A stretch of 64,000 nt of DNA from Candidatus Marinacidobacterales bacterium (GCA_965219415.1 CBDCNP010000002.1:3520001-3584000); one strand, 5' to 3'. Numbered from the stretch's first letter, positions 1,729 through 64,000 are shown. Numbers and translations are program-made. The notes: generated by a model not told the origin, from the letters alone.

Positions 1729-1893
1729 GGTGCTTCCGCCATTAAGTGTTGGTGAGATGACGCTAAGACCCTACGGTGCATTAAATTACAGCCAAAATAG
1801 CGCTCACGACCTTCGCTGCACGCTAAATGGGGCGTAAGTCTTTTTTTTCAAATGGATGCGTACACATCACCAACAGTAAACAGCGCAAGCACC
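1729..1893 (+). mobile_element. MITE B (IS256-type ends GGTGCTT...AAGCACC, about 165 bp)
   Basis: Full copies also at 21395-21560 and 60437-60602; partial copies at 8254, 31216 and 54401. Confidence 0.8.
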
Positions 1894-1946
1894 CGGTCGC
1901 CCAGCCGAGCACCAGTCCTGCGGCGCCACCGACCAGAGGAAACAGC

Positions 1947-2097
1947 CGTGAGGTCAAAATACTCATGCGGCTTCCCGATGGTAGAAACGGAGCAACCCGC
2001 CAAGCCGTTCACGCGAGCGCACCTTGCGCTCGGACTGAGGTAACTGGTCACTGGCTGGGAACAGCAGCAGATTCTCCTTGCCTTTATGATTCCTCTC
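1947..2097 (-). mobile_element. right end (type D, CGTGAGGTCAAAATACTC) plus C-terminus of an rve transposase
   Basis: Encodes ...RERLGGLLRFYHREAA*; near-identical to 47993-48143. Confidence 0.75.
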
Positions 2098-2294
2098 GGG
2101 TTGACCCAGCCAGCCAGAACGAGCAGTAGGAACTGCACGTAGTACGTCATCATAGATCTGACGACAACACCATCGAGACAGACGATTGTAAAGCCTACAG
2201 CCCTTTCGACTTTCTCATTGATTCGAGACAGGTCCGCCGCAGACACGACGATCTCGTGCGGCACGTCCGCCACTTTCGCCCTCACGACCGAGCC

Positions 2295-2545
2295 CGTCCT
2301 GTGCCAAAACTCGGCCCTTTTAAAATAGGCCATAAATCAGCAACTTAGTGTCTGTGTTTGCGACCGGGCCAAGGGCCGTGGGCTTTACAATCGTCTTGGG
2401 CGGGCGGGTCGTCACCATGCAGATGACCACCTAGTCGAGAGCGAATATCGAAGCGCGAACAAACGACGAAATCATGTAGGCATGGTCCCGGCAGACCGGA
2501 GACCGATCAAGTTCGGGGCGCGCGGATGAAGAAATAGAAGGCACA
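2295..2545. mobile_element. MITE A, internally deleted rve element (CGTCCTGTGCCAAAACTCGGC...TAGAAGGCACA)
   Basis: Two-ended relatives at 20160-20307, 20539-20716, 35606-35753 and 44178-44324; partial tandem copy at 2675-2836. Confidence 0.8.
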
Positions 2546-2904
2546 GGGATCTCAACCTGACTCGAATGCCCCCCCATGTGTTGCTCGTGACTTTTCCCTG
2601 TTCTTCCAGAGCAATTCCCTGTTCAGTGATCTTAAATTCCCTGTTCTTTGGGAACAGGGAATGTCCACCTAACCCGTCCTGTGCCAAAACTCGGCCCTTT
2701 TGAAATAGGCCATAAATCAGCAACTTAGTGTCTGTGTTTGCGACCGGGCCAAGGGCCGTGAGCTTTACAATCGTCTTGGGCGGGCGGGTCGTCACCATGC
2801 AGATGACCACCTAGTCGAGAGCGAATATCGAAGCGTGTGCCTGAAGCTGTTTCCACGCTACGCCGGCAGAGCGCACCGAGGGACTACCGTCGCCAGCAAA
2901 CCAT

Positions 2905-3235
2905 CTACGCGGCACGGCAGTAGTAGTTGAGAATGCCTCCAAGTCGCTCTCGCGACACGATGGGGCCAGTGTCATTCGCGCTTGCCGGCAGAGGTGTGAG
3001 GAACTCGTTGCCGAGACCTTGGTGGTTCCGTTCTGTGTGATAGTGCACTACGTATTCGGTTATCGCTGTCCGCAGGTGTCGCTCGCTGAGAGGTACGAGG
3101 CGGTCGAGACACTCTCGACGTATGGAGAGAACGAATCTTTCCGCGTATGCGTTCAGATTCGGACTATTGGCGGGAAGGCGGAGGGACTTCACGCCTGAAT
3201 CTCTCAACAGCCCACGTACTGCCTCGGTGAATAGC
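2905..3235 (-). pseudogene. rve integrase-core transposase C-terminal fragment
   Basis: [20 protein letters not shown]...ERNHQGLGN...[12 protein letters not shown]; cut by an element R end at 3236. Confidence 0.8.
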
Positions 3236-3396
3236 TGTCCATCATCATTATTTATCCGGGACTGGACTCTAGGCTCGGACCGCCCTCAAGCACATGCTGG
3301 AGAGCGTGGTCAGCGCGCGAGGGAAGGTGCTGAGGACGAACTTCTCGGCGACCAGCCGAGTAACGCGAGCGAAGCCGTACAGCAGCCGGAGCGAAG

Positions 3397-4796
3397 GGTG
3401 ATGTCTTAAGATTCCTGTCAAAGAAAAACGATGTATGGTTCCCCAAGCTCAAACCCGTCCCCGTCATGGGGACAGAAAAGGAGAACCATACATCATGGGA
3501 AAGGTACTACCGAGTCAGCGATTGCTCAAGCAGTTCGAGGAACAACTGGTATTTGGGGAGATGAATCTCTCGGAGATCGTCCGGTCGGGAGCTCAGATGA
3601 TGCTTCAATATGCGTTGGAGCGCGAGGTGACGGAGGCGTTGGGTCGAAACTACTATGAGAACGCTCCGGCAACGACGAAGGAGAAGGGACGACGCAACGG
3701 GTATGAGTCGCATCGGGTCCTCACGGGCGAGGGAGCGGTGACGGTGCAAGTGCCGCGGGTACGAGAAACAGAGAAGGTGTTTCAGTCAAAGATTCTCGAC
3801 GCCTACGTGAGCCGGACCGAGAAACTCGATGAACTGATCGCGCGGATGTACGTCCACGGGATGTCGACGCGTGACATTGAGGCGACGTTCGCGGACGTGC
3901 TGAGCGGCACGGGTGTCTCGAAGTCGGTGGTGAGCCGGGTCACACGGTGTCTGTCGGAGGATTTCGAGGCGTTTCGAAAACGGGATCTCTCGAACGAGAA
4001 GCTGTTGTATCTCGAGCTCGACGGCACGTACCTGCGCTACCACCAAGGAGCGGAGAGGAAAGAGCCCATCCTCGTTGCGACCGGCTATCGCGCTGATGGG
4101 ACGCGAGTTCTTCTTCATATCGGTGTCGGCAACCGAGAATCCTACGAGAACTGGAAGGGGTTCTTGCAGGAGATAGTGGCCCGAGGAATGAGGGAGCCGT
4201 TGCTCATCGTGACGGACGGGAATCCTGGAGTGCTCAAAGCGATCGCAGAGGTCTTCCCTCGAAGCCTCAAGCAACGTTGCCAGAAGCACCGCCTCGAGAA
4301 CATCCTGGGCAAGGCTCCGAAGGAAGTGCGCGACGAACTCAAGGCGGCCATCCTTGAGTCGTTCCATGCGAACAGCTACGAGCAAGGGCTGAAGAAGGGT
4401 CGGGAGGTGATCGCTCGGTACCGTCAACGATTCCCGAGCGCGATGAAGTGCATGGAAGAGACCCTCGAAGCATGTCTTCAGGCGCTACGCCTTCCTGCGG
4501 CGCATCACAAAAGGCTTCGCACGTCGAATCTACTTGAGCGCACGTTCGGAGAGCACAAACGTCGCACAAAGGTCATTCCTCACTTCTTCACCGAGGAGGC
4601 CGCGATGAAACTCTCGTTCGCTGTGCTCTTGGCCGCCGCAAACAAATGGCGCGGCGTGAGGATGGATGTCTTCGCCGCTAGGAAAGTCGAGGAGCTTCGC
4701 AACGAGCTTCTCCCGCAAGGCACGTCGGAGGAATCAGCAGCTTAACCGAGCGCGGGGAACCGTACGGAGATTTGACAGGAAAATTAAGACTTGACC
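3397..4796 (+). mobile_element. IS256-family insertion sequence, complete
   Basis: 26-bp imperfect TIRs (GGTGATGTCTTAAGATTCCTGTCAAA / GGTCAAGTCTTAATTTTCCTGTCAAA); 8-bp TSD GAGCGAAG at 3389-3396 and 4797-4804. Confidence 0.92.
3435..4745 (+). CDS. IS256-family (Mutator-type) DDE transposase
   Basis: RNGY, VPRVR, GMSTRDI, LDG, TDG, QRCQKH and TSNLLER motifs; true start possibly MGKV at about 3495. Confidence 0.92.
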   Translation: MVPQAQTRPRHGDRKGEPYIMGKVLPSQRLLKQFEEQLVFGEMNLSEIVRSGAQMMLQYALEREVTEALGRNYYENAPATTKEKGRRNGYESHRVLTGEGAVTVQVPRVRETEKVFQSKILDAYVSRTEKLDELIARMYVHGMSTRDIEATFADVLSGTGVSKSVVSRVTRCLSEDFEAFRKRDLSNEKLLYLELDGTYLRYHQGAERKEPILVATGYRADGTRVLLHIGVGNRESYENWKGFLQEIVARGMREPLLIVTDGNPGVLKAIAEVFPRSLKQRCQKHRLENILGKAPKEVRDELKAAILESFHANSYEQGLKKGREVIARYRQRFPSAMKCMEETLEACLQALRLPAAHHKRLRTSNLLERTFGEHKRRTKVIPHFFTEEAAMKLSFAVLLAAANKWRGVRMDVFAARKVEELRNELLPQGTSEESAA

Positions 4797-5077
4797 GAGC
4801 GAAGCGGTGGGCACGGTGAACAGATCCATGGCGGCGATATCGTCTTTATGGTTGCGCAAGAAAGCCATCCATCGCTTCAGCTGATCGGGCTCCGCGGGAT
4901 GCCGCGGCAGGTATCGCGACACCGTAATCTCGGAGATGATGAAACCGAGCTTGGTGAGTTCAGCATGGATGCGTGGCGCCCCCCAGCCGTCTTGCGCCAT
5001 CGTGCGGACGAGGCGGCGAATCTCGGCATCAATCCGAGGCCGACCGGGATGGCAGCGCTGCGACATCTTTGCCCAGT

Positions 5078-6362
5078 TGTCCATCATCATTATTCGTCCG
5101 GGACTGGACTCTAGGCCCGGACCGCCCTTGAGCACATGCTGGAGAGCGTGGTCAGCGCGCGAGGGAAAGTGCTGAGGACGAACTTCTCGGCGACCAGCCG
5201 AGTAACGCGAGCGACCAAGCTGACTCAGGCTGCCTCTCGCCACTCGTATCGATGGTGCAATCCACCGACTCGCGGCAGTGCGACGACTTTCGCCGTAGGA
5301 GACGGTCGGTGCGTGACCGCTCTCAAGCTCGGTGTGTCCTTGTTCAGCCCCAAGTGGCAACGGTCCTCGTGATAGTAGCTGATGTAAGCTCGCACGAGCC
5401 GGATGAGATGACATGCGCCGAGAACCACGACGTGCTCAAGGAGCTCGCGACGGCAGCTGCCGACCCACCGCTCCGCGGTTCCGTTTTGCCATGGGCTGCG
5501 AAACGAAGTGCGAACGGGTTTTGTGCCCGTTGCTTTGATGAACTCGATGACCGCAGCGCTAAAGATGAAGTCGCGATCGAAGATGAGATATTTCGGAGCG
5601 GTGTCGTAGGGAAACGCCTCACGCAGTTGCTGAATAACCCAAGCAGACGTCGGGTGGAACGTGGCGTTGAAGTGAACGATGTGCCGACGGCCGTGCTCGA
5701 TGACGAAGAAGCCGTACAGCAGCCGGAGCGAAGCGGTGGGCACGGTGAACAGATCCATAGCGGCGATATCGTCTTTATGGTTGCGCAGGAAAGCCATCCA
5801 TCGCTTCAGCTGGTCGGGCTCCGCGGGACGCCGCGGCAGGTATCGCGACACCGTAATCTCGGAGATGATGAAACCGAGCTTGGTGAGCTCAGCATGGATG
5901 CGTGGCGCCCCCCAGCCGTCTTGCGCCATCGTGCGGACGAGGCGACGAATCTCGGCATCAATCCGAGGTCGACCGGGATGGCGGCGCTGCGAGATCTTTG
6001 CCCAGTACCGTCGGAATCGGTCGCGATGCCAACGGGCCACGGTGTCCGCGTGGACGATGAGCAGGCGGCTCGTCCACACGGGCCACGAACCTCGAAGGGC
6101 AACCCAGAAAGCCCGTTCCGTGTCGTCGAGCGGTGGGCGTGGGCGCTCTTTCTTCAGCGCCGTCACTTGCTGCCGCAAAGCGACGTTCTCCAACACCAGG
6201 TCGGCGCGGCGCCGACACATCGCCCGAATGACACGGACGCCAAGTGAGACGAAGAAGACAACAACGTTGAGCATAGCGGCGGAGTTTCGCCGTCTTCGGC
6301 CCGGAATTCAAGCGGAGCGTAAGTCCTTGATTTCGTGGGCGGAGCAGTATTGACGATGCACA
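5078..6362 (-). mobile_element. rve element R copy 1 (1285 bp, TGT...ACA imperfect TIRs)
   Basis: Ends TGTGCATCGTCAA / TGTCCATCATCAT; near-identical to 28327-29611 and 48273-49558; no TSD. Confidence 0.9.
5225..6274 (-). CDS. integrase-core (rve) DDE transposase, IS481/IS3-like
   Basis: WGAPRIHAEL, AMDLFTV, IFDRD, SPWQNGTAERW and GGLHHRYEW motifs. Confidence 0.9.
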   Translation of the reverse strand: MLNVVVFFVSLGVRVIRAMCRRRADLVLENVALRQQVTALKKERPRPPLDDTERAFWVALRGSWPVWTSRLLIVHADTVARWHRDRFRRYWAKISQRRHPGRPRIDAEIRRLVRTMAQDGWGAPRIHAELTKLGFIISEITVSRYLPRRPAEPDQLKRWMAFLRNHKDDIAAMDLFTVPTASLRLLYGFFVIEHGRRHIVHFNATFHPTSAWVIQQLREAFPYDTAPKYLIFDRDFIFSAAVIEFIKATGTKPVRTSFRSPWQNGTAERWVGSCRRELLEHVVVLGACHLIRLVRAYISYYHEDRCHLGLNKDTPSLRAVTHRPSPTAKVVALPRVGGLHHRYEWREAA

Positions 6363-6715
6363 GCCGAATTTTGGCACAGGATGGGATCGAGGCGAGGGTT
6401 GCCGGGAGGCCGACCACGCCAGATCCGTAGCTAGACGACGGCCGCGTCGATGCTGACAGGGCCGGGACTGCCGATCAGGATGAGCTTCGAGAGACATTCC
6501 TCTTTGACGGACTTCACCCAGCGCTCCGCGAACGAGGTCCAATCCGGGCTCCGTGCTGGCAGCTTGACGGGCACGACGCTAACTGCTTGTGCCTTCTATT
6601 TATTCATCCGCGCGCAGCATCTTGCTGACATAGTGGCGGGATCTAGCGGGTAACGCGCTGCCTCTCTCGTGTCCAACTTCCCTGCTTCCCGAAAAAATTT
6701 AGGAGAAATGATCTC

Positions 6716-10244: not shown

Positions 10245-11012
10245 GTGAGCGAAAAGTCCGCAATCGAATGGACCGACTCAACGTGGAATCCAGTGACGGG
10301 CTGCACGAAGATCAGTCCCGGCTGCAAGCACTGCTACGCTGAGACCTTTGCCGAACGCTGGCGCGGGATTCCGGGCCATCCCTACAAGCAGGGATTCGAC
10401 CTGCGGCTGTGGCCAGATCGCATAGACATGCCTCTCATGTGGAAGAGGCCTCGCACGATCTTCGTGAACAGCATGAGCGACCTCTTCCACGAAAAGGTGC
10501 CTCTCCCGTTTATTCAGAGGGTGTTCGAAACGATGGAGAAGGCCTCCTGGCACACGTTTCAGATCCTAACAAAGCGCTCGAAAAGGCTGGCAGATCTCGC
10601 TCCCGATCTGAACTGGCCTCCCAACGTATGGATGGGCGTGTCGATTGAGACAGCCAAGTACCTGTGGCGAGCAGATCATCTTCGCCAGGTTGCGGCTACC
10701 GTGAAATTCCTGTCCTTGGAGCCTCTCTTGGGTCCGCTGGATACCATCGACCTATCCGGCATCCACTGGGTTATCGTAGGTGGAGAGAGCGGCCCTGGTG
10801 CTCGACCTATTGAAGCCATGTGGGTGAGGAAGATTCGGAAGCAATGCTGCGCAAACGGAGTGCCGTTCTTTTTCAAGCAGTGGGGCGGCGTGCGGAAGAA
10901 GCAAAATGGTCGGGTCCTAGGCGGGCGGACCTGGGATGAAATGCCGGCCCCACGCGAGACTCTTCCCGATAGCAGAAGGCCCTCTGTGTCTTTGGGCGGA
11001 GCTAAAAGGTAA
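10245..11012 (+). CDS. DUF5131 / phage Gp37-Gp68 family protein
   Basis: IEWTDSTWNPVTGCTKISPGCKHCYA, FVNSMSDLFHE, GGESG, FFFKQWGG. Confidence 0.92.
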   Translation: MSEKSAIEWTDSTWNPVTGCTKISPGCKHCYAETFAERWRGIPGHPYKQGFDLRLWPDRIDMPLMWKRPRTIFVNSMSDLFHEKVPLPFIQRVFETMEKASWHTFQILTKRSKRLADLAPDLNWPPNVWMGVSIETAKYLWRADHLRQVAATVKFLSLEPLLGPLDTIDLSGIHWVIVGGESGPGARPIEAMWVRKIRKQCCANGVPFFFKQWGGVRKKQNGRVLGGRTWDEMPAPRETLPDSRRPSVSLGGAKR

Positions 11013-11836
11013 TGGACAGGGATGACACGATCGGCGGTTGGTCTGTAGACAAGCTCAACCTCCTCCGAAAGTACCTCGAAGCCTATGTGACAGTTCTCAG
11101 GAACCAGAGCTGGTGCAAGGGCTACGAGTACATTGACGGCTTCGCTGGAACTGGAAAACCACAAACTCGGGATGAGCAGCAATACATCAACGGCTCCCCG
11201 CGCGTGGCCCTGGAGCTTCCTAATCCATTCACGAAATATCACTTCATCGAGAGTTCGAATTGGAGAATCAAGAAGCTGGAAAAGCTGCGGAAGGAGTTTC
11301 CGAGTCAACAGGTCGAGATCTACCCTGGTGACTGCAACGACGTGCTGCGGAGAAAGATTGTGCCTGACTTTCCGATGAAGAGTTTTAAGCGGGCACTCGC
11401 CTTCCTTGATCCTTTTGGAATGGAGCTAGAGTGGAGCACCCTCGAGGAAGTTGCCCGGGTTGAGACTATCGAGGTGTTCCTCAATTTCTCGGTCATGGCC
11501 ATCAACCGGAACGTGCGGCTGCGCCGGAAGGAGGACATCTCGCCCGCGGTGCGTGAGCAGATGGATCGCTTCTGGGGCACGGAATGGGAAGCAGAACTTT
11601 ACGAGGAAAAGCAGACGCTGTTTGGACCAGAGACCGTTAGAATAAAGCAGTCGGGCAAAGAGCTGGGAGAGCGATTCCAGAATCGTCTCCAGGAGATCTT
11701 TCCACACAGCACCGTGCCGGTGCTGATGACGAATAGCAAGAACGCCCCGCTGTACTGCCTCATTTTCGCTGGTCATAATCCGACGGGGGTGAAGATCGCC
11801 AACGACATCTTCGGCAAGTTCCTCAAGATGGGTTAG
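11012..11836 (+). CDS. tcmP: three-Cys-motif partner protein TcmP (SAM-dependent methyltransferase fold)
   Basis: WSVDKL, YIDGFAGTG, GDCN, FLDPFG; start overlaps the DUF5131 stop. Confidence 0.85.
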   Translation: MDRDDTIGGWSVDKLNLLRKYLEAYVTVLRNQSWCKGYEYIDGFAGTGKPQTRDEQQYINGSPRVALELPNPFTKYHFIESSNWRIKKLEKLRKEFPSQQVEIYPGDCNDVLRRKIVPDFPMKSFKRALAFLDPFGMELEWSTLEEVARVETIEVFLNFSVMAINRNVRLRRKEDISPAVREQMDRFWGTEWEAELYEEKQTLFGPETVRIKQSGKELGERFQNRLQEIFPHSTVPVLMTNSKNAPLYCLIFAGHNPTGVKIANDIFGKFLKMG

Positions 11837-12113
11837 AAAGAGCGTTGTCGTCCTGTGCCAAAACTCGGCCCTTTTGAAATAGACCACAAATCAGCAGCTT
11901 AGACGCCCTTGGAATCCGCGCAGAATCCAGGGCATTTCGCGCCGCAGGGCTGGCTTCCGACCCCTAGGCTGCGGGTGACGGGCGACAGGCCCACTGGGGT
12001 ACGCACGGCTGGCTGGCTCAAATCGGCTGCAGGACGAGCTGCAGGCCGCGAACTGCGCACCCGCGGAAGCGCCCATTGGACTGGACTTTACGGCGCAAAA
12101 GAGCGAACGTCCG

Positions 12114-12548
12114 GTGATGCCGCAGGATACAAGAGTTGGCCGGAGGGTCGTTCTGGACGGTTTGGACCTCGCCAGCCTGCGGCGGGCCTGGGAGCAGACC
12201 TTTGGGTCCGCTCCGCCAAGCTCGCTCTCACGCGCTCTCCAGCGCCGCGTTCTTGCGTACGAACGCCAATGCCGGACCCATGGGGGGCATTCGGCCGCAA
12301 CCCGACGCGCTCTGGCCGCCATGGCGAACGGCACACCAAAACACTCTGCTCCCGCAGGGTCCGTTTCTGCCGGCACCCATCTCGTCCGCGAGTGGAATGG
12401 CCGCACCTACCAGGTCGAGGTACTCGACAACGGCTATCGGTTCGACGGCAAAACCTACCCGTCCCTCACCACCATCACAAAGCGAATCACCGGCACACAC
12501 TGGTCAGGATCACGCTTTTTCGGTCTGACGCCCAAGCGCAAGGCCTGA
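12114..12548 (+). CDS. DUF2924 family protein
   Basis: GTHLVREWNG...Y.SLT..ITGTHWSGSRFFGL; directly upstream of a serine recombinase. Confidence 0.85.
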   Translation: MMPQDTRVGRRVVLDGLDLASLRRAWEQTFGSAPPSSLSRALQRRVLAYERQCRTHGGHSAATRRALAAMANGTPKHSAPAGSVSAGTHLVREWNGRTYQVEVLDNGYRFDGKTYPSLTTITKRITGTHWSGSRFFGLTPKRKA

Positions 12549-12549
12549 C

Positions 12550-14211: not shown

Positions 14212-14872
14212 GGTAGACCACGCTGTAAGCGAACCCGCGGCGGCTGCCACGCTCGCTCTTGGTCTCCATCAGTCGGCGAACGGCATCGCCCCTTACTGAT
14301 GATGACATCGGCGGCGTGCGGGTCTTGAGTTCGTTTGTGTTTTTGGACACGACGGCGTCTTCTCACTAGCTGAGCGATTAGCGCTCGATTCGGCCCCGAA
14401 ATGCCCTCCAATTGCATTTTTATGACCTGTTTTGCACCGTTACTGCTTGTTTGCTGCCAAGAGCTGAATAGCTCCACTTGCTCCCACTTGAGCCTTACGA
14501 CTGCGATAGTCGGAAAGGTGTTCCCGTCAACGACGCGTCCATCGATAAGGCGTAAGAGCTTTTCACTACAATGATTTACGAGCGGAGTCTCCGTCGGAGG
14601 GTTTACAACACGGTCCTCTTACAGGCGTCAAGGAGGTTGAGATTGCCGTCTAGAAAATCGAATTTAATGTCAATTCGCAAATAAGCTCGAACGACCATCC
14701 GTCGATGAGGCGTGCGGGGACCAGCACGTGACGGATGGCTTTAAATCACTGTAGTACAAGAGGATAGAACGACGTAGGCACCAGGGCTTCTCTGAGTTTT
14801 CGCTACATTGGCCCACCACACGCGCGGCGAAAGGGCCATATTAGACTTGCAAAACTCGCAATACACCTTTTA

Positions 14873-17998: not shown

Positions 17999-18054
17999 GG
18001 TGCTTCCGCCATCAAGTGATGGAATGGACTCCTCCACTGACATAGACGGCATCG

Positions 18055-19131: not shown

Positions 19132-19169
19132 ATTTAGAGGCTCCACTTTCGTGTTTTCCTTTTTCCCTT

Positions 19170-52588: not shown

Positions 52589-52594
52589 CTCATC

Positions 52595-53730
52595 ATGCCG
52601 CTCGCTGATCCAACATATATTGGCCAGGTCGCTTCCGTTACAGGAGCTATAGTCCGCGTACGGCTTCGCGAGGATATGCCATCAACGCTGGTCATGATCG
52701 GCGGGGAGTCCTACCGTGTCGGCCAGATCGGGGGGTTCTTCCGCGTTCCCCTTGGCTATGCCAACCTTTACGCCGTCTGCACTCAGATCGGCGCGGATGC
52801 AGCCCCTCCCAGCAGTGCCGAGGTAATGTCCGAGGCAGCGCTGGAAACGGACTCACAAGTTCGTCTCTCGGGCTTTCGCTGGATGACGATTGTGTTATTC
52901 GGCGAAGGACTTGGTACCGAGTTTGAGAGAGGTGTCGGTCAATACCCGACAGTCGGAGATGAAGTACACCTTGTTACCAATGACGATCTTAAAATTATCT
53001 ATGGATGGGCAAAGGGCAAGAAGGGCACAATTTCTGTCGGACAAATAGCTGCCACGTCTGGCATATCAGCCGACGTAAGTGTGGCAGGACTCGTTAGCCG
53101 ACACAGCGCCATCGTTGGTTCCACAGGCGCGGGCAAGTCAAACCTCGTCACCGTTCTGATGGAAACGGTTTCCGACGGAACCCTGCCGAACGCCCGAGCA
53201 ATTGTCATTGATCTGCATGGCGAATACGGGACTGCACTTGGCGCCAAGGCGAGAGTGTTTCGTACAAGGCCTGACGAGGAAGCTGGAGAAAGACATTTGC
53301 GGGTGCCGTTTTGGGCGCTTCCATTTTCCGAGCTCCAGCAGCTTACGTTAGGGGGACTTCAGCCCAACCATGAAGCCGCTATCCGGGATCAAGTCCTAGA
53401 TATGAAAGTAGCGGCGGCAGAGCACCTGACCATCTCTCCGCCACCGGAAACACTCACTGCGGATTCTCCAGTCCCGTTCAGCATCAAGCAGCTATGGTAC
53501 AAGCTTGATCAATCTGAACGGGTCACCTTCCACACTACAGGAAACCAGCAGACTGACCAAGAGGCCTACCCTCCAGATGAAGTCGGAGACGCGAGCAAAT
53601 TGAGGCCCGACCGATATCCGGCAGCGAGTCCCTATAACCAGGAGCCGTACAAGAATCAGCGAAAGCGAAACATTGAACGCCACCTTGATCTCATGCGGAG
53701 CAGATTAAAGGATAGTCGGTTCTCGTTCCT
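52595..53730 (+). pseudogene. herA: HerA-family ATPase, 3' truncated
   Basis: N-terminal HAS-barrel-like region, RHSAIVGSTGAGKS, IDLHGEY; after DSRFSF it runs into reversed rve sequence. Confidence 0.85.
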
Positions 53731-54194
53731 TCTCGCGAAGCGGATAATCAGCTGTTCGATCTTTTCGTCGATTCGTGGTCGCCCCGGATACGTCCGGTTC
53801 TTGGAACCGTCGAACTTCCTGGCGATGAGCTTGCGGTGCCACCCGAGAATCGTATCGGGCCTGACGATACTCGCTACCTCTTCGAGCGCGCGCTTGCCGA
53901 GCTGTTTTCCGATCTCCGCCAAGGTTCTCCGCTCACCATCGGTCAGGCGCAAACGGCCTTGCAGCTGATCTCGAAGAATACGATTCTCGGTAACGAGGTA
54001 CTCGTTGCGCAGGAGCAGTTCTCGGTCGACCGATCCCGTGATGTACGCCAGCATTGTCTTCCAGTCCATTGTGTCTCCCCGGAGAACTAGAGTAAGTACC
54101 TGACCACGACCTGTGATTCAACCGGTCTAACAGACCGAGGCCAAGCCCTCTCAAACTGGCCTACGGGAGCGCGTTTGAGTTTATTGACCAGACG
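53731..54194 (-). mobile_element. H-type left end with rve transposase N-terminal fragment
   Basis: MDWKTMLAYITGSVDRELLLRNEYL...PGRPRID; end CGTCTGGTCAATAAACTC at 54194. Confidence 0.8.
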
Positions 54195-54400: not shown

Positions 54401-54730
54401 GGTGCTTCCGCCATGAAAGTGTTGGTGAGATAACGCTAAGACTTTACGCTGCATTAAATTACAACCAAAATAGCGCTCACGACCTTCGCCGCGCGCTTGC
54501 CAGTGGAACAAGTTTCGGCACAGGACGCCATCGTATGCAATAATGATGTCGGCGTGCACACGAAGATGTTGCTGAACGTCAGGCACCGCCTGGTCAGCGC
54601 AGTCTGCATCGCCGAAAGAACTGTGTCCCTTCGAAATCAGGCTCAACCTCTAGCACGTGAGCGGGTTACGCGGCGGCTACCAACACTTGATTTCAGAAGC
54701 ACCCGTGTCGAGGTGGAGCGGGTTTAGCTT

Positions 54731-55915: not shown

Positions 55916-56000
55916 CGTCTGGTCAAAATATTCGAACGCCCATCGGGTCAGCAGTTTGCACCTTTCCAACGGGAAGCCGCATGAGTATTTTGACCTCACG
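55916..56000. mobile_element. 85-bp MITE made of the H and D ends
   Basis: CGTCTGGTCAAAATATTCG...TGAGTATTTTGACCTCACG; second copy at 57509-57593. Confidence 0.85.
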
Positions 56001-56051
56001 CCGACAGAACCCGTCCTTTACAGCAACCGACCCAGTTTCAGGAGCTGAATC

Positions 56052-56927
56052 ATGAGTAACAAGTACGTAAGGCCGGAACACATGTCGCTAAAGGGCCATC
56101 CCGACTTTAACGAAAAATGGGTACAAAACCTCATTGCGAACGATCCTTCCATCCTACGGCTTGGAGAATTAGCGCTGAGGGACATAGAGCGCATGCAGCC
56201 GCGCGCCGGCCGTCTCGATCTTCTGCTTCAAGATACCGATACGAAACGAAGATACGAAGTGGAACTGCAACTCGGGTCGACGGATGAGGCCCATATCATC
56301 CGTACAATCGAGTATTGGGATATCGAGAAGAAGCTTTACCCGCAATATGAGCACTGCGCCGTCCTCATCGCAGAGGACATTACAAGCCGATTCTTGAATG
56401 TCGTCTCCCTTTTCAATGGGGCAATTCCCCTCATCGCTATTCAGATGCAGGCTCTCAAGGTCGGTGATAACCTGACGCTTGTTTTCACCAAGGTCATGGA
56501 CGAACTTTCGAGGGGACTTATTGACGAGGATGAGGATGCTGAATCAGCACCGACCGATCGTGCATACTGGGAGAAACGCGCCACCAAAGCAACGGTCGAT
56601 TGGGCCGATCAGATACTGGAGATTCTTCGTAGCTTTGATCCAACACTGAATCTGAAGTACAACAAATTCTATATCGGCGTGGAGAAGGACGGTCAACCCT
56701 ACAACTTTGTAACGTTCCGGCCACAGAAGAAAGCGCTCAGTTTCAACTTGAAGCTACCCCAGACCGACGATCTTGATACCAAGATCGACGAAGCTGGTCT
56801 CGACACGCTTGAGTACGACACACGCTGGGGCTTCTACCGCCTTCGTCTGACCATGAACGACATTAAGACGAAGTCGGAGATTCTGGAACAGTTGTCAAAA
56901 CTTGCTCATGCTCGACGAGCAAGCTAG
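56052..56927 (+). CDS. NucS-like PD-(D/E)XK nuclease with DUF5655-like C-terminus
   Basis: FNEKWVQ, GRLDLL...YEVELQ, AVLIAE; LKYNKFYIG...NFV. Confidence 0.65.
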   Translation: MSNKYVRPEHMSLKGHPDFNEKWVQNLIANDPSILRLGELALRDIERMQPRAGRLDLLLQDTDTKRRYEVELQLGSTDEAHIIRTIEYWDIEKKLYPQYEHCAVLIAEDITSRFLNVVSLFNGAIPLIAIQMQALKVGDNLTLVFTKVMDELSRGLIDEDEDAESAPTDRAYWEKRATKATVDWADQILEILRSFDPTLNLKYNKFYIGVEKDGQPYNFVTFRPQKKALSFNLKLPQTDDLDTKIDEAGLDTLEYDTRWGFYRLRLTMNDIKTKSEILEQLSKLAHARRAS

Positions 56928-57508: not shown

Positions 57509-57593
57509 CGTCTGGTCAAAATATTCGAACGCCCATCGGGTCAGCAGTTTGCACCTTTCCAACGAGAAGCCGCATGAGTATTTTGACCTCACG

Positions 57594-58155
57594 CGGAGAT
57601 TTTTCACGGCGTTGCCGATCGGGTCGGAGACTCGCTGGGGCTCGCCCGGCTTGCAGCGGCGACGGATGCGGACGTGATCGTTCTTGCCGGTGTGTACTTC
57701 ATGGCAGAAACGGCCAACCTTTTGAACCCGAACAAGACTGTCCTCATTCCAGATGCGGAGGCCGGTTGTTCTCTTGCCGCCTCCATCACTGGCGCCGACG
57801 TGCGGCTTCTGCGAGAACGCTACCCGGACGTTCCGGTTGTTACCTACGTAAACACATCGGCCGAAGTGAAGGCGGAGAGCGACATCTGCTGCACCTCGTC
57901 GAACGCTGTCAAGGTCGTCGAGTCACTCGGTACGGAACGCGTCATCTTTCTTCCTGACGAGTACCTCGGGCGATGGGTCAGCCAGCAGACGAACGTCGAC
58001 GTCATCCTGTGGAAAGGCCATTGCGAGGTGCACGAGCGGTTTACGGCGGAAGAACTGCTTGGCGCACGCGAGCAATAGGGCAAGATTACGATTCTGGCGC
58101 ACCCGGAATGTCCGCCCGATGTCCTCGCGGAAGCCGATTTCGTCGGCTCGACGGT
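57594..58155 (+). pseudogene. nadA: quinolinate synthase internal fragment
   Basis: [49 protein letters not shown]; internal TAG; both ends clipped by rve ends. Confidence 0.9.
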
Positions 58156-58504
58156 TGTGCCTTCTACTTATCCATCCGCGCGCACCGAACTTGATTAGTC
58201 TCCAGTCTGCCGGCATCATGCCTGCATGATTTCATCGTTTGTTCGCGCTCTCATCTCTGCCTTCAAGGCTCGTCCCGAGCTAGCTCTCGAGAGTGTCGCT
58301 CTTCGTGCGTCTGGAGATTCAGGGTTTAGTCCGGCATCTGCTAGTAGCCGCTCCGGCTCCATTCGCTTTTTCAGACACGACGGGCTCTGGAATGACCCGG
58401 TATAGTGTGGGCAGCTCTCGGCCAGTGGTCTCGGTGAGTTTCGGCTTGGGCGAGGACTCCCCATACCTACCCTTGCCCGTTTTTCCACGAAATCGAGGTG
58501 CGTA

Positions 58505-60292
58505 ATGGAGATTCGGAACCTCAACCAGCTTCTCTCGAACGCGGCGAAGAAGTACGACAAGCCGGACGCCCTCCTGTACAAGAAGAAGGGGGAGTGGCGG
58601 CGGCTCTCCTCGCGCGAGCTCATCGAAAAGGCAGGCAACTTGGCACTCGGGCTGAACGGCCTGGGTATCGGCCGGGGCGACAAGGTCACTCTCCTCTCGG
58701 AGAACCGCCACGAGTGGTTCATTATCGATGCCTCCCTCCAGATCCTGGGCGCGGTCAACGTGCCGATCTACGCGACGCTCCCGCCTCCTCAGATCACCTA
58801 TATCGTCTCGAGCTCCGAGTCGAAGGTCGTTATCGCCTCGACCGCCGACCAGCAAAAGAAGATCGCCGCCATCCGTTTGGACCTCCCTTCGGTCGGACAC
58901 TACATCACTATCGATCCGCCGACGGACGGCTACCAGGCGCTCACCCTTGACGAGGTGATGAAACAGGGCCAAGAGAGCCGGAGGGCAAAACCCGATCTCG
59001 TCGGCGAGCTATCGGATGCGGTCGACTCCGACGATCTCGCCAGCATCATCTATACGTCGGGAACGACCGGAGATCCGAAGGGCGTCATGCTCACCCACCG
59101 CAACCTGCTCTCGAACGTTGCGGCCAGCCAGAAGGCGCTCCCAGTCGAGGACACGGACGTGGCGCTCTCGGTGCTTCCCTATAGCCATGTCTTCGAGCGC
59201 ATGGTGGCGCATTACCTGTACGCCAACGGGGGTGCCACCGTGGCGCTCGCGGAGGGCCAGGAGAAACTCCTGGAGAACCTCGGTGAGATCCGCCCTACCA
59301 TCATGACGATGGTGCCTCGGTTCTACGAGAAGGTCTACGCCGGTGTGATGGAGAAAGTCGCTGCGGGGAGCGCGCTGAAGCAGAAGACCTTTCACTGGGC
59401 GGTCGCGATCGGACGCGAGCACGGGAAGTACCGGCAACGCGGCGAGCCGGCCCCGGCGCTCCTGAACGTCAAATACGCGCTCGCCTCCAGGCTCGCTTTC
59501 GCAAAGCTGCACGCCCGCGTCGGCGGCCGGCTGCGGTTCTTCATCTCGGGCGCGGCTCCGCTCGCGAGAGAGATCGCAGAGTTCTTCTGGGCGGCGGGGC
59601 TGCAGATCCTGGAGGGCTATGGGCTGACGGAAACCTCGCCGGTCATCTCCGTCAACCGTCCCGATGCCTTCAAGTTCGGGACGGTAGGACAGCCCGTCGA
59701 GGGAGTCGAGGTCAGGATCGCGAAGGATGGAGAGATCCTGGTCCGTGGGCCCAATGTCATGAAAGGCTACTACAAGAACGAAGCAGCCACTCGAGAGGCC
59801 ATTGACGAGGACGACTTCTTCCATACCGGTGACGTAGGGGTTCTCGACTCAGACGGGTTTCTTGCCATCACCGACCGCAAGAAGGACCTCATCGTTACCG
59901 CGGGAGGCAAGAACATCGCTCCCCAGCCCATCGAGGGCCGCGTCAAGACGAACGCTTACATTGCGGAGTTCGTCCTGGTGGGCAACAAGCGGAAGTTCCC
60001 GGCAGCGATCGTGGTGCCTGATTTCGAGAAGCTCGGTGCCTGGTGCAAGGAGCAATCCATCGACGCCTCCGACCGGAACTCGATGACCGGTCATCCCGAT
60101 GTGATCGCTTTCATGGAGAGCCAAGTACAGTCGATGACCTCGCACCTCGCGCAGTTCGAGAAGATCAAGAAGATCACCCTGATAGCAACGGAATTCACTC
60201 TGGAGGGCGGGGAGCTGACGCCGACGCTCAAAGTGAAACGAAAGGTTATCGAGGCCCGTTACAAGGATGTCATCGATCGGATGTACGAGTGA
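58505..60292 (+). CDS. long-chain fatty acid-CoA ligase (AMP-binding)
   Basis: YTSGTTGDPKG, EGYGLTE, FHTGDVG, DRKKDL, GELTPTLKVKR. Confidence 0.93.
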   Translation: MEIRNLNQLLSNAAKKYDKPDALLYKKKGEWRRLSSRELIEKAGNLALGLNGLGIGRGDKVTLLSENRHEWFIIDASLQILGAVNVPIYATLPPPQITYIVSSSESKVVIASTADQQKKIAAIRLDLPSVGHYITIDPPTDGYQALTLDEVMKQGQESRRAKPDLVGELSDAVDSDDLASIIYTSGTTGDPKGVMLTHRNLLSNVAASQKALPVEDTDVALSVLPYSHVFERMVAHYLYANGGATVALAEGQEKLLENLGEIRPTIMTMVPRFYEKVYAGVMEKVAAGSALKQKTFHWAVAIGREHGKYRQRGEPAPALLNVKYALASRLAFAKLHARVGGRLRFFISGAAPLAREIAEFFWAAGLQILEGYGLTETSPVISVNRPDAFKFGTVGQPVEGVEVRIAKDGEILVRGPNVMKGYYKNEAATREAIDEDDFFHTGDVGVLDSDGFLAITDRKKDLIVTAGGKNIAPQPIEGRVKTNAYIAEFVLVGNKRKFPAAIVVPDFEKLGAWCKEQSIDASDRNSMTGHPDVIAFMESQVQSMTSHLAQFEKIKKITLIATEFTLEGGELTPTLKVKRKVIEARYKDVIDRMYE

Positions 60293-60294
60293 CG

Positions 60295-60392
60295 ATGTCC
60301 GGCTACGAGACCGTCATCGGCCTCGAGCTCCACGCTCAGCTCAGGACAGAGACCAAGCTTTTCTGCAGGTGCCGCACGCGCTTCAGTGACCC
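60295..60392 (+). pseudogene. gatB: Asp/Glu-tRNA amidotransferase subunit B, 5' fragment
   Basis: MSGYETVIGLELHAQLRTETKLFC; cut by an A end at 60393. Confidence 0.85.
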
Positions 60393-60603
60393 CGTCCTGT
60401 GCCAAAACTCGGCCCAGCCGGCATTGACGAAAGAACGGTGCTTCCGCCATTAAGTGTTGGTGAGATGACACTAAGACCCTACGGTGCATTAAATTACAGC
60501 CAAAATAGCGTTCGTGACCTTCGCTGCGTGCTAAATGGAGCGTAAGTGCCTCTTTTGAAAAGGGATGCATATACATCACCAACAGTAAACAGCGCAAGCA
60601 CCA

Positions 60604-61155
60604 TCATGGCTGCGACTCCCTGGATTGCGAATCGCCATCGTCGACCTCTGGTTCAGCAGTCTCCGGCTCAGCAACCTCTGGTTCAGCAGCCTCTGGCTCA
60701 GCAGCCTCTGGCTCAGCAGCCTCCGGTTCAGCAGGAGCGGAGCGTTCCTCGTTGACCGTCATTTGGATCGACCCCTTGAAGATGGCTCCTTCGGCAACCG
60801 CGATGCGTGCGGCGCGGAGATTTCCGAACACCTTTCCGGTGCGGGTGAGCTCAACTTTGTCGCTTGCCGTGCAGTCGCCCTCTAGCTTGCCACGTATCGA
60901 GACGTTGGCCGCCTCGACCTTCGCTTTCACTCGACCAGCTTCTTCGATTACAACCATTCCGCTGCTCTTGATCTTGCCTTCCACCCGCCCTTCGATCTGG
61001 AGCACCTCGCTGGTGTTCAACTCACCGCTGATGATCGTTTTCGCTCCGATCAACGTTTGCGGCGCGACCGATGGTGATTCGTTCTGGGCCGGAACACCGC
61101 GGGGACCGGTCACGACGTTGAGTTTTTGCGGTTCCGATTTTCCAAACAATCCCAC
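60604..61155 (-). CDS. bactofilin (polymer-forming cytoskeletal protein)
   Basis: TLIGAKTIISGEL, IEGRVEGKI, GKVFGNL, AEGAIFKG. Confidence 0.88.
   Translation of the reverse strand: MGLFGKSEPQKLNVVTGPRGVPAQNESPSVAPQTLIGAKTIISGELNTSEVLQIEGRVEGKIKSSGMVVIEEAGRVKAKVEAANVSIRGKLEGDCTASDKVELTRTGKVFGNLRAARIAVAEGAIFKGSIQMTVNEERSAPAEPEAAEPEAAEPEAAEPEVAEPETAEPEVDDGDSQSRESQP
60645..60734. repeat. 15-bp tandem repeat, about 6 units, encoding AEPEA/V/T
   Basis: CTCTGGCTCAGCAGC units in the bactofilin tail. Confidence 0.85.
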
Positions 61156-61270
61156 GTTACCTCCTGGAGTGGCTCACACTGCAGCGTTCAAGAAGGGTTA
61201 GATCGCCGCGGCGATGAAGGTCGTCCTCTTCTCTCATACCTCATCATAAGGGTGCTTCCGCCATCAAGTG

Positions 61271-62715
61271 ATGGAATGGACTCCTCCACTGACATAGACG
61301 GCATCGATGTGCCAAAGTCAGTCGAATACGCATCGAAAAGGAGGAGTCCGAATGAAAGATACGACAATCGCTGTGGATCTTGCAAAGAACGTCTTCGAGA
61401 TTGCCATCTCGGGAGAAGCGGGGAAGGTGTCCAAGCAACTCCGTGTGAGTCGACCCAAATTGGTGTCGTTCTTTGCCAAACAGAGCGCTGCCACCGTGCT
61501 TCTCGAAGCCTGCGGCTCGGCTCACTTCTGGGCAAGGACGTTCCGAAGGTTGGGACACGACGTCGTCCTGCTCCCACCTCACCTCGTGAGGCCGTATCGA
61601 CGCGGGAGCAAGAACGACCGCGCCGACACGAAGGCGTTGCTCGAGGCCTACAGGAACGAGGAGCTTCTTCCCGTACCCATCAAGTCCGTGCACCAGCACA
61701 CCCTCGCTGCGCTCCATCGCCTGCGCTCAGGATGGCTCTCCACACGGACCGCACGCATCAATGCCGTACGCGGGCTCCTGCGCGAACTCGGATTCATCAT
61801 CCCAAAGGGCGCTCACTTCGTCGTGCCCGCCCTCTTCGAACTCGTCGAAGACGCTGATTCTGATTTGCCCGACGTGCTCCGTTCGCATCTCCGTGATGCC
61901 TGCTCCGAGATTCGAGAACTCAAGGACAAGTGCGCTAGCATCGAGCACGAGCTCAAGGCGCTCACCAAGCAGCTTCCTGAAGTCCAACGACTTCTCGCCA
62001 TTCCCGGCATCGGACTTCTGGCCGCGACCGCCATCGTGGGCTTCGTCGGCGATCTTCGCCGCTTCCCATCGGGGCGCCGCTTCTCGAGCTACCTCGGCCT
62101 AGTTCCCAAGGAAAACTCCAGTGGCGACATTCGCCGCCTCGGACGCATCACCAAGCGTGGCGACTCCTACCTCCGTATGCTCCTCACCCAGGGCGGGCGC
62201 GCCGTGCTCCGCGCGGCGAACGTCAGCAAGAGCCCGCCCGACAAGCTCCGCGCCTGGGCTCGGAAGGTCCACCGCTCGCGGGGACACAACAAGGCCGTGA
62301 TTGCTGTCGCCAACAAACTCGCCCGGATCGTCTGGGCCGTCTCCACCCGCGAGAGTGAATTCCAGTCGCCGGTGGCCGCTTAGATTTAGAGGCTCCACTT
62401 TCGTGTTTTCCTTTTTCCCTTCCAAAAGAGGCTGCGACGATACCCATCCAACTGATGGCGTACCGGTCGGACCGGCGCGGGGTCAAGCCAATAGCAACAC
62501 TGGCCCTAAGAGGTCGTTCAAAGTGATTGGCTCCTCGCGCGCGGATTTTCCATCATGGCCCGGAGCACCCAAGACGCTCCTCACTGAGGCCGAAGATACG
62601 TTTGCAGTCTGACCCACTCGTCACGACGCGATGGATGCGCAGCTTCGATGGAAGATTTATTAAGAAAGGGGCGTGACTAGAAAGAAAGGGGCTTGACTAG
62701 AGGAGTCCAGATATG
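61271..62715 (+). mobile_element. IS1111-type element copy 2
   Basis: Same sequence, length and junctions as 18019-19463. Confidence 0.9.
61307..62383 (+). CDS. IS110-family recombinase/transposase
   Basis: Translation identical to 18055-19131. Confidence 0.95.
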   Translation: MCQSQSNTHRKGGVRMKDTTIAVDLAKNVFEIAISGEAGKVSKQLRVSRPKLVSFFAKQSAATVLLEACGSAHFWARTFRRLGHDVVLLPPHLVRPYRRGSKNDRADTKALLEAYRNEELLPVPIKSVHQHTLAALHRLRSGWLSTRTARINAVRGLLRELGFIIPKGAHFVVPALFELVEDADSDLPDVLRSHLRDACSEIRELKDKCASIEHELKALTKQLPEVQRLLAIPGIGLLAATAIVGFVGDLRRFPSGRRFSSYLGLVPKENSSGDIRRLGRITKRGDSYLRMLLTQGGRAVLRAANVSKSPPDKLRAWARKVHRSRGHNKAVIAVANKLARIVWAVSTRESEFQSPVAA

Positions 62716-63003
62716 TTGCTACGCCGCGTTTGAATGCTAATATCAGTTGGCCTGCCTGTGTCGGCGAACGCCATAAATTAAGGATGTCGGCGTGCACACG
62801 AAGATGTCCCTGAACGTCAGGCACCGCGTGGTCAGCCCAGCCGGTATCGCCGAAAGAACTTGCATCTATCCAAATCAGGCCCAAACTCTAGCACGCGAGC
62901 GGGTTACGCGGCAGCCACCAACACTTGATTGCGGAAGCACCTCGTCCTGTGCCAAAACTCGGCCCAGCCGGCATCGACGAAAGAACTGCGCCTCTCGAAA
63001 TCA

Positions 63004-64000
63004 GGTGCTTCCGCAATTAAGTGTTGGCGGTCAGCCCCTAACCGGTCTGCGTGCTAGAGTTTGAACTAGAATTCCGAAGACACAGTTCTCTCATCGTCAG
63101 GGGATGTCCCGCCGGATGTTGAATTTGGGGTAGCGGCGGCTCCTTGGCCGGCCTAAGAATAGGTCTGCCAATAAACCGTCTCCAGAGGGGGACAAGGAGC
63201 CACCAATGCCTAGGAAATCAAAGAAGCCAGTAAGAAAGCAAACGCACTCGCCTACGGGCAAGGTAGTTGGCCAAGTCGGTCAGATACTGCTACCGATGAT
63301 AGCTGGGCTCGCGGCCACGAAGGCGGATCGGACGCAATGGGTGTACGAGCAAGGACTGACAGCTCTGCACCTACTGCTCAGAGAGGACGCCGAGTAGATC
63401 GCGGGGCTCAAGGGCAAGCACGAGAAGGAGCGAACTCATAACCACTGGGGGAGCACGAACGGAGAGCTGAGCTTCGGTGGTCGTCGCATCCAAGTGTCGC
63501 GACCTCGAGTTCGCTCGAAGTCGGGCGAGGAGGCGTCGCTTCCACACTTCGAAGCCTTCCGCGAAGAAGACCCGCTTCCAGAGCGAGTGTTGAATCAGAT
63601 CTTGGTGGGCGTATCGACCCGAAATTACGAACGGAGTCTGGACAAACCCGCGGCCAAGTTGAAGTCTCGTGGCACGAGCAAGAGTGCCGCCAGCCGTCAC
63701 CTCGTGAGCCAGACGACGAAGAAGCTTGAGCAATACCTGTCTCGGCGGCTAGAGGAGTACGAACTTGCGGCACTGATGATGGATGGCCTTGAGGTGGCCG
63801 GCCAGACCGTCGTCGTAACTCTCGGTATCACAATAGATGGAACGAAGGTGCCCCTGGGTATATGGCTGGGCTCGACGGAAAACTCTCGGGTGTGCACCGC
63901 GATGTTACAGGACCTTCTCGAGCGAGGCTTGCGCGTCGATGAGTCGATTCTCTGTGTAGTGGACGGAGGCAAAGGTATCCGCAAGGCACTCGTCGACGTT
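63004..64000 (+). mobile_element. IS256-family element, left part; transposase (from 63206) has an internal stop
   Basis: TIR GGTGCTTCCGCAATTAAGTGTTGG; read-through of the TAG ending the 63206-63397 ORF gives RPRVRS, GVSTRNY, MDG, GSTENS, VDGGKG; runs off the window. Confidence 0.85.

Follow-up and report, generated by a model that had tools for sequence, protein, structure and literature searches.

In the arrays built by IS26 and the IS6 family of insertion sequences (ISs), mosaics of short cargo segments are bordered by one IS, single copies are devoid of target-site duplications (TSDs), and the pieces are reshuffled between replicons. Other families have habits of their own: IS3 elements make TSDs of 3-5 bp and IS481 elements of 4-15 bp, IS110 elements are known for site-specific insertion at a conserved target sequence, and transposons mobilized by serine recombinases are known to make no TSD. 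Furthermore, defence systems cluster with mobile elements, both in defence islands and in host-associated, IS-rich genomes. Here we describe a stretch of 64,000 bases (the window, G000:C3:3520001-3584000) from contig C3 of G000, the metagenome-derived genome of an acidobacterial lineage, in which unrelated gene modules meet at the ends of several repeat families. Foremost among these is R, a 1,286-bp element with a transposase of the rve type; the others, named A, B, F, HD and G, include MITEs (miniature inverted-repeat transposable elements). R, A153 (a MITE of the A family) and B lack TSDs throughout the genome, R shows a flank preference at each end separately, and the modules are shared between bacterial families. 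On balance, and with restrained confidence, we regard the window as a slice of a horizontally shared accessory compartment, which would have been shuffled and eroded by TSD-less element families whose ends were joined singly.

The likeness of this locus to the IS26/IS6 arrays lies in the mosaic of short cargo, the TSD-less single copies and the reshuffling. It differs from them in that the R transposase is an IS3/IS481-like rve enzyme, IS6 being absent from the five NCBIfam families listed as matches of the R open reading frame (ORF) at E <= 0.01; in that the R copies are not all directly oriented, following one another in the window as plus, inverted, plus; and in the MITE-sized ends. With the IS481 and IS3 families R shares the rve_3 domain, a single ORF of 349 aa and TGT...ACA termini, the last of these holding over 49 copies of R. 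However, the R ORF scores far below the NCBIfam cut-offs (83.4 bits against 160 for IS3, NF033516, and over profile positions 66-366 only; 77.3 against 224 for IS481, NF033577), and R has no TSD, whereas those families make TSDs of 3-15 bp.

Integrons are likewise collections of unrelated, often defence-related modules divided by short repeats, and an earlier note on this DNA had proposed that the window is an integron-like platform whose joints are DDE transposon ends instead of attC sites. In contrast to integron cassettes, the modules of the window have no common orientation, possess flanks of their own and are often cut; the pattern extends genome-wide, and the joints derive from several unrelated element families. 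No IntI-type integrase was found among the 40 window ORFs scanned against Pfam (ORFs below 100 aa lay outside the scan), the only recombinase seen there being a serine recombinase at 12550-14211, and no attC sites or attC-like common site were seen, no dedicated attC model having been run. Defence islands differ from the present case, in which one TSD-less superfamily borders modules that different bacterial families share at 96-100% identity.

The nearest published observations concern IS copies that lack TSDs as a result of adjacent deletions, recombination between ISs or movement coupled to rearrangement, one of these ISs being of the IS481 type (Ngan et al., 2024, mBio, PMC11708052). As in that paper, where TSD-less ISs lie beside deletions or duplications, one deletion in our genome starts exactly at an R end. 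In that work, however, the events are occasional and the families normally make TSDs. What is unusual here is that the TSD-less behaviour is family-wide (49 copies of R, 69 of A153) and has shaped about 2 Mb.

The genome, the window and its repeats

The genome G000 consists of three contigs, C1 (2.07 Mb), C2 (0.28 Mb; 284 kb) and C3 (5.69 Mb), with a G+C content of 59% in all three, a completeness of 96% and an estimated contamination of 8.45%. C1 belongs with C3, because several other IS families are shared by the two at 99% identity or more and are scattered over both. The public records that contain relatives of the R transposase are mostly metagenome-assembled genomes (MAGs) labelled 'Candidatus Marinacidobacterales', and the relatives of G000 carry this label; a literature search on the name 'Marinacidobacterales' found no papers. 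Several public runs that contain part of the window are labelled as sponge metagenome.

About half of the window (31,806 of 64,000 bases) has at least two further copies in the genome, and its comparison with itself gave 155 repeat pairs, among which all the R, A, HD, F, G and B elements listed in the earlier note were recovered. In this comparison the A family appears at 2290, 20155/20160, 20534/20539, 35601/35606 and 44173/44178, and F at 31612/31618-31746 and 35809/35815-35960. Rfam at gathering scores and a tRNA scan gave no match in the window; this includes the group II intron that had been suggested there, since no group II intron RNA reached the Rfam gathering score. The elements are the following.

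5078-6363, minus strand: R element, 1286 bp, ends TGTCC...GCACA, no TSD
5225-6274, minus strand: R transposase ORF, 349 aa, rve_3 in Pfam
28326-29611, plus strand: R element, inverted copy, set between a cut hydantoinase_B gene and the SRPBCC segment, no TSD
48273-49559, minus strand: R element, third full copy, no TSD
3233-5077, no strand given: degenerate copy composed of R 1-137, R 631-661 and R 649-929, interrupted by IS256 and ending at R position 929, where the full R at 5078 cuts it
3397-4796, within the degenerate R: IS256 with a perfect 8-bp TSD, GAGCGAAG
20160-20307, plus strand: A153 MITE (CGTCCTGTGCC...GGCACA), no TSD
35606-35753 and 44178-44324: further A153 copies, no TSD
2290-2455, plus strand: A169 variant with an A tip at its head; second copy at 2673-2835
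8417, 20539, 21358, 31310, 37067, 47650, 60393 and 62943: starts of other A tips
31618-31746, plus strand: F MITE (CGTCGTGTCCAAAAA...GGACACAACG), no TSD; second copy at 35815-35960, no TSD
55916-56001, plus strand: HD MITE (CGTCTGGTCAAAATA...CACG), no TSD; second copy at 57509-57594, no TSD
1729-1893, plus strand: B MITE of some 166 bp whose terminal inverted repeats, 25 bp long, begin GGTGCTTCCGCC
21395-21560 and 60437-60602: further B copies; partial copy at 54401-54497
37122: G element, following an A tip
11849-15202, plus strand: multi-copy serine-recombinase element with an A tip at its head (CGTCCTGTGCCAAAAC...)
12550-14211, within that element: large serine recombinase, 553 aa
14312-14355, within that element: F-type tip
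61251-62941, plus strand: IS110-family element, ORF 61307-62383, with the B-type terminal repeat at its bounds
17999-19585: second IS110-family element, whose right part differs from that of the copy at 61251

Over many copies the ends are TGTCC...GCACA for R (1286 bp), CGTCCTGTGCC...GGCACA for A153, CGTCGTGTCC...GGACACRACG for F, CGTCTGGTC...CACG for HD and GGTGCTTCCGCC...GCAAGCACC for B.

Target-site duplications are lacking family-wide

No TSD is present at the window copies of R (three), A153 (20160, 35606 and 44178), HD (two) and F (two), nor at B at 1729, as the earlier note had reported for two-ended elements. This copy-by-copy inspection of flanks leaves aside A at 2295 and 20539, G at 37122 and B at 21395 and 60437, the last two being represented in the TSD test only through the genome-wide count of 146 B copies. 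Genome-wide, the 49 two-ended R copies have flank matches of 0, 1, 2 and 3 bases in 31, 6, 8 and 4 cases, as against 33.5, 6.0, 6.2 and 3.0 after shuffling, so that matches of 3 bp, for instance, number 4 of 49 where 2.96 are expected. For A153 (69 copies) and B (146 copies) the distribution of TSD lengths likewise equals that of shuffled or cross-paired controls. The absence of TSDs is thus a property of the families and not of the window locus.

Ordinary insertions keep their duplications in the same genome. The 8-bp TSD of IS256 at 3397 that the earlier note had singled out is indeed perfect, and all eight genomic copies of IS256 (295.4 bits against a cut-off of 150 for NF033543; the family makes TSDs of 8-9 bp) have one. 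Among 22 copies of ISc, 18 carry a TSD of 7 bp, and among 36 of ISd, 31 carry one of 4 bp. Within the repeat-rich parts of C3, with looser boundaries, the TSD is kept in 15 of 15 copies of these three families, which makes general scrambling or poor assembly unlikely. Seven other IS families had been searched with free boundary offsets, and the apparent TSDs of ISa, ISb and ISe, which turned out to be constant bases internal to the elements, were dropped; ISf had no TSD of varying sequence and ISg gave a weak signal (6 of 12), so the controls were restricted to ISc and ISd.

Recent copies and copies in other genomes behave in the same manner. Among eight young R copies in G000, which form pairs at least 99.5% identical with different flanks, one has a 3-bp match; near-identical R copies in other genomes show a clean 3-bp match in 0 of 8 cases, copies in the Glo_18 MAG in 0 of 2, and R relatives in seven further lineages in 1 of 7. 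R has many relatives: at least 8000 candidates were scored in the search with its protein, all at E <= 1e-10, and hosts of such relatives include Acidobacteriota, Gammaproteobacteria, Gemmatimonadota and deltaproteobacterial MAGs.

A flank preference at either end

Of the 49 R copies, 48 have C or G at position -2 on the left and none has A at position -1; on the right, C or G likewise occupies position +2 in 48, and T is found at +1 in a single copy. The two sides mirror each other (-1 against the complement of +1, p = 0.66; -2 against +2, p = 0.92), and thus the same preference, hereafter S-B, exists at each end. If a former TSD of k bases had merely come unpaired, the left-hand base at -k and the right-hand base at +1 should be alike in composition, and a chi-square test on the R flanks rejects this for k = 1 to 5 bp (p from 2e-9 to 4e-4). 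The S-B pattern also stands before the CGTC with which 488 A, 79 HD and 162 F tips begin, where no conserved target core beyond S-B was seen, and at the ORF-upstream end in all eight R relatives of other lineages, including those in gammaproteobacterial, Gemmatimonadota and Chromatiaceae MAGs.

Most R copies have a unique sequence on one side and a repeat on the other. Elsewhere in the genome no genuine contiguous empty site was found for any of 49 R, 70 A153 and 146 B copies, both flanks lying in repeats for 20 A153 and 49 B copies; the three candidates seen for A153 proved to be artefacts of tandem arrangement or self-overlap. A search for complementary partner flanks among 1038 ends gave no preferred spacing after filtering, and two peaks, at -3 and +8, traced back to a single tandem A153-A153 junction, which pairs with every A tip. 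The missing TSDs, the end-specific flank preference and the absence of empty sites agree with the proposal of the earlier note that the ends were joined independently.

Two cases at R ends are informative. A duplication of 10.6 kb (C3:4515546-4526140 and C3:4930871-4941408) exists in two copies that differ by 52 bp of B, lost exactly at the right R end; the shorter junction (G-C-T) fits the flank preference, and the longer one carries the sole +1 T of the R data set. In turn, the fragment R 649-929 adjoins the left end of the R at window position 5078, and R 930-1286 adjoins the right end of another R (C3:4431423), about 0.9 Mb away, with no overlap between the two pieces.

Other irregular copies of R and its relatives were met. 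A truncated form, R 1-389, occurs seven times in G000 and also in G022 and G026, and may be a stable derivative or reflect a hot spot. Around G031:C1:691003-694267 (L016), pieces 1-967, full length and 393-1347 of the relative R2 lie head to tail, an arrangement that does not come from one simple insertion. Another R2 copy (G031:C1:558991-560924, L107/L110) contains a group II intron of 1934 bp, with an ORF of 462 aa, exactly between positions 764 and 765; since the intron fills this split, it was set aside as evidence on R. A comparison of island and empty site at C3:756001-776000 was not simple either, the core flanks lying 2 Mb apart in G001.

The window belongs to a compartment of about 2 Mb

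Fourteen repeat probes, all derived from the window, were searched genome-wide, with C3 divided into 89 bins of 64 kb. They gave 237 hits for B (156 of full length), 506-527 for the A probes, 128 for R (of which 49 reach both ends), 169 for F and 174 for HD. C3 and C2 hold nearly all of these hits and C1 next to none, the probes covering 5.1% of C3, 3.9% of C2 and 0.02% of C1 (a fraction of 0.0002). On C3 the coverage exceeds 5% in 33 of the 89 bins (2.11 Mb) and 10% in 21, and it is zero in 39. The earlier note had asked how the density of ends compares inside and outside the region: the window indeed ranks second of the 89 bins by coverage with its own probes (0.23, median 0.0075), but the 33 bins above 5% show that high density is not confined to it. 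It is typical of the repeat-rich bins rather than a special locus, and the idea of a discrete platform gives way to an architecture that recurs in those bins, in part of C2 and in relatives.

Two tiers of repeats are apparent in this genome. R, A, B, F and HD are nearly absent from C1 and from 39 of the 89 C3 bins; a younger tier, ISa to ISg at 99% identity or more, is spread over C1 and all of C3.

The strands of the A tips are unequal in the window (13 plus, 2 minus), and 34 of 43 point in the same direction in C3:3.4-3.6 Mb; genome-wide they are balanced (219 against 237). The 456 A tips lead into 111 distinct kinds of sequence, 78 of them unique.

Cargo modules are cut, reordered and shared

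Between the elements lie the following modules.

22933-28320, minus strand: M14/S-layer-like gene and C-terminal half of hydantoinase_B; partial copy, at 90-92%, of the core locus C3:1311881-1321088
29612-30936, plus strand: two SRPBCC genes; copies at C1:866363-867686 (98.9%) and C3:4613007-4614250 (99.1%)
37188-43779, minus strand: intact ZacA/ZacB/ZacC candidate defence system, 6.6 kb; 99% identical to G026:C1:7881579-7888167 (family f2)
44894-47428, plus strand: PDC-S28 helicase-type candidate defence gene, full length
49563-53968, plus strand: RecB-like nuclease, SIR2 (full length) and HerA (cut, profile positions 7-353 of 576)
58153-60415, plus strand: AMP-binding enzyme module; second copy at C3:4428822-4431033 (98.8%), three copies at 98-99% in G003
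PDC-S65: cut, profile positions 16-232 of 592
type IIG/ISP enzyme: cut, positions 603-896 of 1086 of the PADLOC type IIG profile
HEPN protein: present in the window

Two of these modules have counterparts in repeat-free parts of the genome. The SRPBCC copy at 98.9% sits on the repeat-free contig C1, and the M14/hydantoinase segment, whose gene order is that of G001, has its counterpart at C3:1.31-1.32 Mb. Of the 519 positions in its profile, the hydantoinase_B ORF (27535-28320) spans only 247-518; it ends against R at 28321, and its missing half was not found elsewhere in the genome; with SRPBCC genes on the other side of the same R, the two flanks are unrelated, as had been noticed. Altogether four genes are cut at repeats, namely hydantoinase_B, HerA, PDC-S65 and the type IIG/ISP enzyme, and erosion is no less visible than capture.

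The modules are 96-100% identical in family f2, where their order and cut points differ. The PD-(D/E)XK module (36077-37000) and ZacABC (37188-43779), neighbours in the window, lie 210 kb apart in G026, each at 99% identity, and this accords with the description of the window segments as unrelated modules. Fragments of ZacABC with other end points occur in G002, G014 and G054, and the first 1.8-2.0 kb of the RecB-like/SIR2 module are found at 96-99% in G054, G014, G026 and G016 with four different end points. The copies of the AMP-binding module quoted above contrast with ordinary AMP-binding orthologues, which are 67-71% identical in 12 other genomes (11 without the unpublished G007). R itself is 97-98% identical in genomes of two families, whereas the core DNA of G001, a member of the same genus, is about 80-91% identical. 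Neither normal TSDs across the genome nor colinearity with a single eroded island was found, the two findings that together would have refuted the proposal of the earlier note.

The earlier note had also remarked that several intact genes end 12-24 bp from an element end. Gaps of 18-24 bp are borne out by the coordinates for the pentapeptide gene (stop at 8230, repeat from 8252), the type ISP gene (end at 15453, repeat ending at 15434) and the helicase (stop at 47428, repeat from 47446), but the type ISP ORF is a C-terminal fragment and not an intact gene. Two gene names fell away: no Pfam family matched the ORF presumably called 'tcmP' (11012-11836), and neither a Pfam nor an NCBIfam family matched the one presumably called 'nadA' (56052-56927).

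A few observations on cargo and repeats stand on their own. In G014:C4:2987342-2990253 (L118), ZacC is rearranged (query positions 1-1311, 1985-3028 and 2728-3340), a case of module decay in another genome. A repeat of 404 bp at window positions 43776-44180, which begins GGATGTGTCCCGAGGTCCG and resembles the end of the ISb family, is 93-99% identical in many genomes of the order and occurs also on C1 and in core C3. The segment of 602 bp at 20717-21319 has four other genomic copies at 99.8-100%, and its left continuation in contigs of public runs differs from that in the window.

Which enzymes move the ends

Among the repeat elements of the window, only R encodes a transposase of the rve type according to Pfam. 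The earlier note had taken the joints for DDE transposon ends, which does not hold for all of them, B and the A tip being linked to other elements. B shares a terminal repeat of 20-25 bp, and only this, with the IS110-family element, whose transposase scores 302.6 bits against a cut-off of 140 for NF033542 and has the Pfam domains DEDD_Tnp_IS110 and Transposase_20. No conserved target motif was found in the flanks of 146 B copies, which is unusual given the site-specific habit of the IS110 family.

In turn, the A tip forms the left end of the serine-recombinase element and is constant in all seven aligned copies, that of the window and six from five other genomes. The recombinase of 553 aa has the Resolvase and Recombinase domains (PF00239, 1e-37; PF07508, 1e-12). 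Copies of the element at 93-94% exist in at least eight other genomes, and one copy holds the only A tip on C1; the copies stop at differing points and their 3' part differs between genomes, so that no right end could be defined. At the same time the A tip is like the termini of the R family (YGTCC...CAAAAC) and has the same flank preference as R. Because the A tip heads the recombinase element yet resembles the R termini and shares their flank preference, the mover of the A, F and HD ends may be either the rve transposase or the serine recombinase.

Weighing the explanations

The reading that we favour, as probable but far from settled, is that of a shared accessory compartment with singly joined ends. 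This compartment occupies about 2.1 Mb of C3 and part of C2, as a mosaic of cargo modules of about 1-7 kb, with many defence genes, some extra copies of core genes and several cut modules, moving horizontally among genera and families of the order. Its module borders would belong to a superfamily with YGT...ACR termini, of which R (1.29 kb, with its single IS3/IS481-like rve transposase) would be the autonomous member, the A, F and HD tips having related termini and the same flank preference. Instead of being inserted as concerted pairs with a staggered cut, the ends would each be joined alone to an S-B site of the transposase's choice, in intramolecular or unresolved replicative events with adjacent deletions, inversions and fusions as their products. 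On top of this, the hundreds of near-identical copies would recombine homologously and reshuffle the segments further. The outcome would be TSD-less joints, unrelated flanks, cut neighbours and a segment order specific to each genome. Of this picture, the family-wide TSD lack, the flank preference of single ends, the one deletion beginning at an R end and the presence of modules in several families are observations, the single-end chemistry and the enzyme behind the A, F and HD ends being inferences. Several points weigh against this reading. It is deduced throughout from the end products that metagenome-derived genomes contain, neither an intermediate nor an event of transposition having been observed, and the short contigs available from public runs break at repeats and cannot check long-range joins. 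Between genomes, some homology boundaries do not coincide with an element end: ZacABC has its left edge 10 bp away from the G end, and at its right edge G026 carries a composite insert of 307 bp without a terminal element end. The relative R2 in G031, with copies 99.3-100% identical to the query copy, has 3-bp matches in 4 of 16 cases where 1.27 are expected. The pair R 649-929 and R 930-1286 fits a blunt two-ended insertion whose halves were later separated. B, tied to an IS110-family element, represents a different mechanism, and the A, F and HD ends, given that an A tip heads the serine-recombinase element, may move by conservative recombination.

The last of these points is the core of the strongest rival, according to which the 553-aa serine recombinase would move the A, F and HD ends by conservative site-specific recombination, R being separate. 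The lack of TSDs would follow from the known behaviour of serine-recombinase transposons, an A tip forms the left terminus of the recombinase element here and likewise in each of the six copies aligned from five other genomes, and F and HD start and finish with CG at both ends; given the R-like terminus and S-B preference of the A tip, the undefined right end of the element and the lack of any conserved target core beyond S-B, we nevertheless consider it rather unlikely. A blunt two-ended insertion of R, with a stagger of 0 bp at a loosely palindromic SB|VS target and later separation of the flanks by recombination or deletion, would account for the symmetric flank preference and for the R-into-R pair that is exactly contiguous at 929|930. 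However, contiguous flanks exist for none of the 49 copies, young ones included, the four flanking bases within single copies are usually non-palindromic, and we know of no DDE transposase with a 0-bp stagger, which leaves this mechanism improbable. Much the same, or a shade less, may be granted to classical decay, in which R and the MITEs would insert with a short TSD and be unpaired afterwards by recombination between copies and by deletions, as in other IS-rich genomes. The hundreds of copies, with a mean identity of about 97.6%, offer ample substrate for recombination and R2 has its mild excess of 3-bp matches, but the flank composition is unequal for any TSD length from 1 to 5 bp, R copies at least 99.5% identical already lack the TSD, partner flanks are nearly absent, and other IS families in the same bins keep theirs in every case examined.

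The dedicated capture platform of about 61 kb, with DDE ends in place of attC, is a far weaker contender and seems to us very improbable. The window does rank second in repeat coverage, it holds ZacABC, PDC-S28, SIR2-HerA, PDC-S65, the type IIG/ISP fragment and the HEPN protein, its A tips point mostly one way, and G026 has the modules in another order. Nevertheless, the same architecture covers 2.11 Mb of C3, the TSD lack is family-wide, the A-tip strands even out over the genome, neither an integron integrase nor an attC-like site was seen within the limits of the scan given above, and four genes are cut at repeats. Least credible of all is that the joints are chimeras of assembly or binning across shared repeats. 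The contamination estimate of 8.45% and the short contigs of the public runs would allow for it; yet MITEs of 150 bp cannot mislead a long-read assembly, IS256, ISc and ISd have exact TSDs in the same bins, the TSD-less pattern recurs in other genomes, including the single-contig chromosomes G001 and G031, and unique segments of the window are found at 99-100% in runs of two studies.

Meaning for the family and its hosts

A broader proposal, which goes beyond the favoured reading and which we put forward tentatively, as possible rather than probable, is that R-like elements are a widespread, unnamed IS family whose rve transposase would join each end alone and never make a TSD. Together with their MITEs, they would build, shuffle and erode megabase compartments, the modules of which would be exchanged at about 99% identity between families in the same host-associated communities.

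A practical consequence concerns annotation, as pipelines for ISs and MITEs that rely on TSDs will miss or mis-delimit families of the R, A and B type. Furthermore, concrete modules at about 99% identity between families, such as the intact ZacABC, PDC-S28 and the SIR2-HerA pieces, open a direct test of horizontal exchange between uncultured bacteria that live with hosts. Should the absence of TSDs be intrinsic, R would represent an IS family of the DDE/rve type that normally yields deletions, inversions and fusions instead of simple insertions, and this would explain how large, plastic accessory compartments exist beside a nearly repeat-free core in one chromosome.

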